Source: a virus
Taxonomy: Duplodnaviria; Caudoviricetes
IMG/VR virus record: IMGVR_UViG_3300028549_000365
Coordinates: 96,001 to 160,000 of that record
Length of the DNA stretch: 64,000 nt
Direction: 5' to 3' (one strand)
The notes under the pieces are model-generated. The model saw only the letters and a list, made by a program, of their open reading frames with translations. It did no database searches and was not told the origin of the DNA. A program made the position numbers and the translations under genes. The first letter of the stretch is position 1, and every line of letters begins with the position of its first letter. Positions 38,365 to 38,563 of the stretch are shown here, piece after piece.

Positions 38365-38563
38365 GTAACTATAGCTCAGTCTGGTAGAGCGCGGGGATAT
38401 CAGTGTGTTCTAATTTGTGTATGAGATACACAGCACACTCCGAAGTCATTGGTTCGAATCCAAAGCTTAGTCTGGTAGAGCGCGGGGATATCAGTGTGTT
38501 CCAAAAGTATTTTTACTTGACATACACACTCCGAGGTCATTGGTTCAAATCCAATTAGTTACA
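38365..38563 (+). ncRNA. tandem double tRNA-like RNA: two D/anticodon/T modules inside one acceptor stem
   Basis: 91-nt direct repeat (38373-38463, 38464-38554) enclosed by GTAACTA/TAGTTAC-A; each module has a 41-nt anticodon loop. Confidence 0.75.

Follow-up and report, generated by a model that had tools for sequence, protein, structure and literature searches.

The present study concerns a 199-nt element on the + strand (38365-38563) of a 64,000-nt stretch of viral DNA, here called the window, which corresponds to bases 96001-160000 of the 222-kb IMG/VR virus record IMGVR_UViG_3300028549_000365 (31% GC). The element, referred to below as the double element or E3, consists of a single 7-bp acceptor stem around two in-register 91-nt modules, each of which carries a D-arm and a T-arm of the tRNA type and 41 nt between the two strands of the anticodon stem. 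The interpretation we favour, with slightly better than even confidence, is that it is a tRNA-derived mimic, unable to decode, in which 91 nt were duplicated internally in tandem; it would belong to a lineage-specific class of five genes (E1-E5), and the base of its extended arm would be constrained and the tip free.

Structure and copy state of the double element

In the double element, the 5' acceptor strand GTAACTA (38365-38371), followed by T8 and A9, pairs perfectly with the 3' acceptor strand TAGTTAC (38556-38562), after which come the discriminator A73 (38563) and C74, so that this 3' part extends from 38556 to 38564; CCA is not encoded. Module 1 (38374-38464) is built of a D-arm (38374-38390), the stem strand CGGGG (38392-38396), the bulge or loop sequence ATATCAG (38397-38403), the constant sequence TGTGTTC (38404-38410), a 23-nt core (core 1, 38411-38433), the constant sequence CACA (38434-38437), the stem strand CTCCG (38438-38442) with the variable loop after it, a T-arm (38448-38463) and a linker A at 38464. 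In module 2 (38465-38555), all features recur at exactly +91, i.e. CGGGG at 38483-38487, ATATCAG at 38488-38494, core 2 (23 nt) at 38502-38524, CTCCG at 38529-38533 and the T-arm at 38539-38555. Both modules have a canonical D-arm with the loop AGTCTGGTA, in which the GG is kept, a variable loop of 5 nt, and a T-loop (TTCGAAT or TTCAAAT) that conforms to TTCRA.

The original prediction of tandem 91-nt modules under one acceptor stem was borne out, since TRF detected a single array (38373-38554) with a period of 91 and 2.0 copies, and a repeat search gave a spacing of exactly 91. The boundaries that had been proposed for the inserts needed correction: the 23-nt cores stand, and their flanks (ATATCAG-TGTGTTC on one side and CACA on the other) are identical in both copies and belong to the same loop, which measures 41 nt from CGGGG to CTCCG in each module. 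In tRNA numbering the repeated unit extends from A9 to A64, and its junction (CCAA/AGCT) contains no added nucleotide. The joint is therefore in register and free of foreign DNA, as in a rearranged tRNA gene. According to the original prediction, the insert too should have been copied if this were a plain duplication. The argument is unsafe for what is an exact in-register tandem duplication, because relaxed constraint on the arm tip, or later recombination in the conserved flanks, would suffice to make the cores differ. A stray second copy of GTAACTATA, which comprises the 5' acceptor strand with T8 and A9, is found at 38340-38348 (+ strand), 25 nt ahead of the double element, and resembles the scar left by a further small duplication.

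The two scaffolds are nearly identical, as predicted, with a count of 4 differences rather than about three among the 68 positions outside the 23-nt cores (94% identity). These are a C/T change in the D stem, which turns a G-C into a G-U pair, an A/G change in the variable loop, a G/A change at T-loop position 57, where the purine is kept, and an A/T change at the last module position, which is the duplication boundary. All four are structurally harmless. The cores, by comparison, differ at 17 of 23 positions, with all four bases involved (Fisher p = 3.8e-10 for 4/68 versus 17/23). With gaps allowed they align no better than shuffled sequences (global p = 0.39, local p = 0.61), which is not what ordinary, alignable divergence would give and agrees with the earlier statement that the inserts are unrelated and yet equal in length. 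The GC content of the cores (30% and 22%) is like that of the genome (31%), while that of the scaffolds is 50-51%. This composition is expected of an arm tip that is free to drift while the remainder is held.

Further evidence on the copy state came from an independent Logan contig of 118 nt, which derives from the probable source run, that of a microbial mat, covers 38381-38498 with 0 mismatches, and spans D-arm 1, core 1, T-arm 1 and the module junction into D-arm 2. Such a T-arm/D-arm junction is possible in the tandem form alone and absent from a single-module gene; misassembly of two separate loci, which the original prediction had named as a possible flaw, is contradicted by this contig. 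The Logan contigs break at a 33-nt exact repeat, as a graph with k = 31 must, and the middle contig can be read as a cycle that is traversable 0 or 1 times. Its depth is 6.5, about half of the 12.4 and 13.3 of the flanking contigs in the same run and by estimate some 2 standard deviations low. Both features could be taken to indicate an assembly artefact, in which two alleles or loci of a single-module gene were collapsed into a false tandem, but this is very improbable given that the junction between T-arm 1 and D-arm 2 is present without mismatch in an independent assembly and that, among the contigs listed, none joins T-arm 1 to the 3' acceptor strand. The low depth of the bridging contig would also fit a mixture of one- and two-module genomes, the extra unit having been lost or never gained in some of them. 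The two-body state is probably a recent, possibly polymorphic accident and not a designed array. With regard to other strains, the locus is found in the probable source run alone; wastewater runs contain near-identical pieces of neighbouring sequence and none on 38356-38571, and as these pieces are small shares they provide no evidence either way. An open reading frame (ORF) adjoining the cluster is likewise on record only in the source sample.

The main rival explanation, which we regard as serious and at the same time as unlikely, is a dead gene, i.e. a tRNA gene whose anticodon loop was disrupted, which was then duplicated by slippage, whose cores differ because they are unconstrained, and which was kept since jumbo phages tolerate junk. 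The absence of a canonical anticodon loop from the element, the absence of homologues from all searches made, the second duplication scar close by (the GTAACTATA copy) and the halved depth of the bridging contig, which fits an extra module being gained and lost, are all in line with such a gene. Drift, however, should hit scaffold and cores alike, whereas the cores are randomised and the scaffolds have remained nearly identical. In addition, both modules have every stem and the conserved nucleotides of the D- and T-loops intact, and the five neighbouring genes described below share a specific acceptor-end signature with perfect covariation. The dead gene would be rescued as an explanation if the duplication were very recent and one core had been replaced.

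Origin of the tRNA body and its rebuilt anticodon arm

With default settings ARAGORN did not call the double element. With introns allowed, it reported the whole element as one tRNA with a single acceptor stem, a 125-nt 'intron' and the anticodon ATC. The Rfam tRNA model assigned 31.4 bits to 38456-38563 (module 2; threshold 29), a score that needs a 40-nt local insertion and a mispaired, false 5' acceptor. The hallmarks of a tRNA are present, namely the 7-bp acceptor stem, a D-arm with G18 and G19, and a T-arm with a TTCRA loop. The element thus resembles a canonical phage tRNA (RF00005) in its acceptor stem, the GG of its D-arm, its T-loop, its 5-nt variable loop and its position in a phage tRNA cluster. 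It differs in having 41 nt in place of a 7-nt loop with U33 and an anticodon, no encoded CCA, two bodies and a length of 199 nt (versus about 70-95 nt), and it cannot decode as is.

The 3' part of the scaffold (anticodon-stem strand, variable loop and T-arm) was found exactly in two IMG/VR contigs, where it is part of ordinary tRNA(CAU) genes in which CGGGG and CTCCG enclose the loop CTCATAA. Used as queries, the halves of the body matched phage Ile, Met and other tRNAs. The body is therefore derived from a tRNA, nearest to the Ile/Met type, and its anticodon loop has been replaced.

A dense array of tRNA(CAU) genes was observed in IMG/VR contig L011, where positions 150-1715 contain at least eight such genes at a spacing of ~130 nt. 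A1-U72 and the T-loop ATCGAAA, both characteristic of eukaryotic initiator tRNA, are present in many of them, and two more members of ~129 nt have ~40-nt inserts 5' of the anticodon stem. A contig labelled as a giant-virus metagenome-assembled genome (L012, 2780-3051) carries a tRNA(CAU) of the same type together with a 129-nt member that has an insert of ~44 nt.

McClain and Foss reportedly described, in 1984, hybrid or rearranged tRNA genes that had formed by recombination in the tRNA clusters of phage T4. The double element is similar to recombined genes of this kind in its in-register junction of tRNA gene segments inside a phage tRNA cluster. Unlike them, it is an internal tandem duplication with an acceptor stem that can still pair, and not a fusion of two genes. 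A literature search yielded nothing usable on hybrid T4 tRNA genes or on six-nucleotide anticodon loops.

When folded alone, both arms are predicted to adopt the same architecture with the same energy (-14.4 kcal/mol). At the base, three base pairs of the old anticodon stem are followed by a 7-nt bulge, GGAUAUC, on the 5' strand; above it lie a 7-bp helix, AGUGUGU/(G/A)CACACU, an internal loop and a terminal hairpin made by the core. Opposite the bulge, the 3' strand is continuous. The original prediction that each insert folds into a hairpin of its own was only partly above chance. Core 1 alone forms a 7-bp hairpin closed by a GAG loop at -5.6 kcal/mol, an energy that 0.9% of random 23-mers with the genome's composition attain; for core 2, which forms a 5-bp hairpin with a UUUU loop (-2.7 kcal/mol), this share is 9.7%. 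The bulge includes the self-complementary hexamer GAUAUC (a palindrome), and in the minimum-energy fold of the whole RNA, with the dot-bracket string read by eye, the two bulges appear paired together, which is only a hint of GAUAUC-GAUAUC pairing. Weak inverted repeats of the arm base with 37416-37440 and 39580-39599 were also noted; as a meaningful pairing they were rejected, being judged chance among 25 such pairs.

The location of the inserts at or beside the canonical intron position 37/38 raised the possibility that the element is a true intron-bearing tRNA, or two of them, whose inserts are removed by some activity of the host or of the phage, leaving a decoding tRNA. ARAGORN can model such an intron, and E5 (see below) also has an insert of ~42 nt. 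In eukaryotic tRNA gene families, identical 'exons' occur with divergent 'intron' interiors of equal length, a pattern which the two modules resemble. Archaeal and eukaryal tRNA introns, and tRNA scaffolds engineered for RNA display, likewise combine a constant, otherwise intact tRNA body with a foreign hairpin of variable interior at its anticodon loop. Archaeal and eukaryal introns are, however, recognised by a bulge-helix-bulge (a 3-nt bulge on each strand, with 4 bp between them), whereas the arms of the double element have a bulge on one strand only, and the single bulge of E5 is on the opposite, 3' strand. The 222-kb record, which is 83% complete, encodes no splicing endonuclease (EndA, PF01974), RtcB (PF01139) or Rnl1/Rnl2 ligase (PF09511, PF09414), a result that applies to phage genes only; the phage encodes chimallin, and its characterised relatives infect bacteria. 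A group I intron was rejected as well, with an insert of 34-41 nt against a core of about 200 nt or more and no RF00028 match in 37000-40000 at E values up to 1. Splicing would moreover leave the anticodon AUC, with an A34 that cannot be modified, in an Ile/Met-like body, which is implausible. Only module 2 has a 3' acceptor strand and only module 1 a 5' one, so that at most one tRNA could be made, and this only after removal of 125 nt. We therefore consider an intron-bearing tRNA improbable.

A group I intron (RF00028, 72 bits) does occur elsewhere in the window, on the - strand at 52479-52870, and weaker matches of 46.6 and 32.2 bits, under the 50-bit threshold, were seen in two relatives (L007, 16293-16610, and L008, 17255-17593), where they adjoin ORFs of the HNH/NUMOD type or other unrelated ORFs.

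The original prediction had interpreted the element as a constant tRNA scaffold that presents exchangeable guide- or aptamer-like inserts, or introns. The constant tRNA-type scaffold with two unrelated cores of equal length was confirmed, and neither of the mechanisms was. In a miniature repeat-spacer or guide array, acquired or exchangeable targeting or aptamer cores would be held on a tRNA scaffold, which would suit the scaffold and cores just mentioned as well as the hairpin of core 1, better than that of 99% of random 23-mers. Such an array would consist of only two units of a split 68-nt scaffold. Neither 23-mer, searched on both strands, has a match or complement at up to 4 mismatches in the 222-kb phage; neither core has an exact match in IMG/VR; and 185,579 species genomes contain no exact match to core 2. 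Nothing cas-like was present among the adjacent ORFs scanned, the composition of the cores equals the genome background, and most of core 1 is hidden in its own hairpin, which would suit a guide badly. No reverse transcriptase is encoded either, and the array is accordingly a very doubtful explanation, about as improbable as an assembly artefact. A diversity-generating retroelement target was also rejected, as the reverse transcriptase (PF00078) is absent and the core differences span all four bases instead of being adenine-specific.

YrlA-type Y RNAs (RF02553) of bacteria and phages are non-decoding RNAs that have a tRNA-like D/T/acceptor module, and in these respects they resemble the double element. 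In YrlA, the two ends of the RNA lie in the Ro-binding stem and the tRNA-like acceptor is capped. By contrast, the ends of the double element form the acceptor stem itself, the phage lacks a Ro60/TROVE protein, and no Rfam Y RNA matched at this locus at E values up to 1.

The E1-E5 genes and their genomic setting

The double element is one of five tRNA-shaped genes with rebuilt anticodon arms. E1 (37847-37971, + strand) is a tRNA-shaped gene of 125 nt in which the central region is rebuilt. E2 (38128-38227, + strand) measures 100 nt and has a 6-nt anticodon loop, TTACGA, a long extra arm and TATG at +1. E4 (38584-38655, + strand; 72 nt) has a 6-nt anticodon loop, TCAAAA, and begins 20 nt downstream of the double element. 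E5 (38872-38978, + strand; 107 nt) has 42 nt between its anticodon-stem strands and TATG at +1. E1, E2, E4 and E5 have all kept a perfect 7-bp acceptor stem and a T-arm, and none has a normal anticodon loop. Common to E1-E5 are G1-U2-A3, paired with U70-A71-C72 (U72 in E5), A73 and C74, while acceptor pairs 4-7 differ in every member and are always complementary. CCA is encoded in none of the five, in contrast to the canonical tRNA-Met of the same cluster and to E0 (37622-37696), a tRNA-shaped gene that has the 6-nt anticodon loop TTACCA and ends in CCA. E1-E5 make up five of the seven tRNA-shaped genes of the cluster.

The anticodon loops of three cluster genes (37622-37696, 38128-38227 and 38584-38655) are thus of 6 nt (TTACCA, TTACGA and TCAAAA). 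Two relatives have Val-like tRNAs that are similar and probably homologous, one with the 6-nt loop TCACCC (L007, 12664-12734) and the other with the 7-nt loop TTTACCC (L008, 12622-12694). Because short anticodon loops recur in this phage clade, sequencing errors are an unlikely cause of them. The insert and T-arm of E5 (window 38900-38976) are matched, with 12 mismatches and 1 gap, by a wastewater-run contig of 151 nt, and a diverged relative may therefore keep E5 with its insert.

The late promoter of the non-virion RNA polymerase in phage phiKZ is TATG, and transcription starts at its G (PMC4666361). In three of the five genes E1-E5 a TATG ends exactly at G1, compared with TAT before 4.4% of all G in the genome; in the double element this candidate phiKZ-type late-promoter motif, as read from the sequence, occupies 38362-38365 (+ strand), its G being position +1. 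Transcription of the double element probably starts there. Since TATGTA is not enriched in intergenic DNA (14.7% vs. 12.5%), which gives no independent support for a promoter, its use remains an inference.

The genes lie in a 4-kb island which contains all tRNA-like sequences of the 222-kb genome and is flanked by the genes for chimallin, the phage nuclear shell protein (35173-37041), and for a phiKZ-type multisubunit RNA polymerase subunit (41006-42484). The identity of its chimallin does not exceed 27% to the chimallins of cultured phages or 54% to those from metagenomes. Among the nucleus-forming jumbo phages it is therefore a deep branch without cultured members. The neighbouring ORFs scanned encode chimallin, the polymerase subunit, or proteins of no family; the double element itself is overlapped by ORFs of 46 aa and 51 aa only. 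An intrinsic-terminator-like hairpin with a T run (39004-39037, + strand) closes the RNA cluster 3' of E5.

Between the chimallin gene and the first tRNA-shaped gene, ~580 nt (37042-37620) are without an ORF and have no Rfam match at E values up to 1. A 49-codon ORF (37723-37872), with AAAGGA ahead of its start, overlaps the 5' acceptor strand of E1, which begins at 37847.

Relatives and possible role

Relatives of the phage were reached via chimallin homologues (at most 54% identity), and nine chimallin neighbourhoods were examined. They contained other unusual tRNAs and no E-class element. One relative, with a chimallin 54% identical (L003), has a 95-nt tRNA-shaped element (12341-12435) just upstream of its RNA polymerase gene, with a long extra arm and an anticodon arm that is apparently capped by a tetraloop (~4 nt), for which ARAGORN names no anticodon. 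In another relative (L009, 12100-13269), a gene of the IS605 OrfB/TnpB type directly follows that of chimallin. A search of IMG/VR with a 19-nt scaffold-plus-insert pattern gave no homologue and one chance match inside a coding region, and chimallin used as a protein query in IMG/VR gave none. In JGI metagenome contigs, 0 matches were obtained for the insert ends with a variable core and for the scaffold with any loop of 30-60 nt; the scaffold with a normal 7-nt loop gave 0 matches in species genomes.

In the course of events that we propose, the ancestor of the double element almost certainly had, together with a normal acceptor stem, D-arm and T-arm, a body most like that of Ile/Met-type tRNAs. 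The anticodon loop would, with similar certainty, have been replaced by the 41-nt extended arm, and a precise 91-nt internal tandem duplication (A9-A64) would have placed two bodies in one acceptor stem, as the exact junction strongly suggests. The 23-nt tip may then have drifted or been exchanged by recombination in the conserved flanks, with scaffold and arm base held. The RNA would be transcribed from TATG exactly at G1, and its action, if any, would probably be exerted via the tRNA-like upper body, for instance by mimicking tRNAs or serving as a decoy towards tRNA-binding or tRNA-cutting host factors. Such a role is proposed by analogy with phage tRNAs whose altered anticodon loops let them evade tRNA-targeting defences (PMC10264068) and with Y RNAs, which mimic tRNA (PMC4201824).

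A more far-reaching possibility, which we put forward tentatively and hold to be rather doubtful, is that E1-E5 constitute an undescribed class of tRNA-shaped effector RNAs. The phage's own RNA polymerase would start at G1 from TATG, with no need for RNase P, and the acceptor end would mark one shared partner. The rebuilt arms would bind tRNA-recognising factors, e.g. host anticodon nucleases, and the RNAs would remain uncut and non-decoding. In the double element, two constant arms with the self-complementary GAUAUC bulge would show freely variable tips.

Several points weigh against the favoured interpretation of a duplicated, non-decoding tRNA mimic. The decoy function is purely inferred, and no partner protein for it was found in the phage, neither among the neighbouring ORFs nor in searches for Ro60 (TROVE, PF05731) and peptidyl-tRNA hydrolase (Pth), both of which, like a CCA-adding enzyme, are absent from the phage record. 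At -49.0 kcal/mol, the double cloverleaf is 7 kcal/mol less favourable than an alternative fold (-56.1 kcal/mol), and the folding z-score of the whole element is only -2.2. With only three informative substitutions between the module scaffolds, purifying selection on both modules is indistinguishable from a recent duplication with replacement of one core. Searches of IMG/VR, JGI contigs, species genomes and the nine neighbourhoods yielded no homologue either of the element or of the E class, so that conservation is missing as evidence for a functional RNA, and no RNA run is listed as containing the locus.

The role of phage tRNA genes is debated between codon supply and escape from tRNA-cleaving defences, and the interest of the double element rests mostly on the E-class family that surrounds it. 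If the element were merely a dead rearranged gene, it would be a neat but ordinary case of turnover in a phage tRNA cluster. As a duplicated mimic, it would show how such a gene can grow by internal duplication, with body and arm base kept and the arm tip free. Five of seven tRNA-shaped genes in a nucleus-forming phage that retain the full upper body and one acceptor signature, with no decoding loop, would point to a tRNA shape that is used outside translation.

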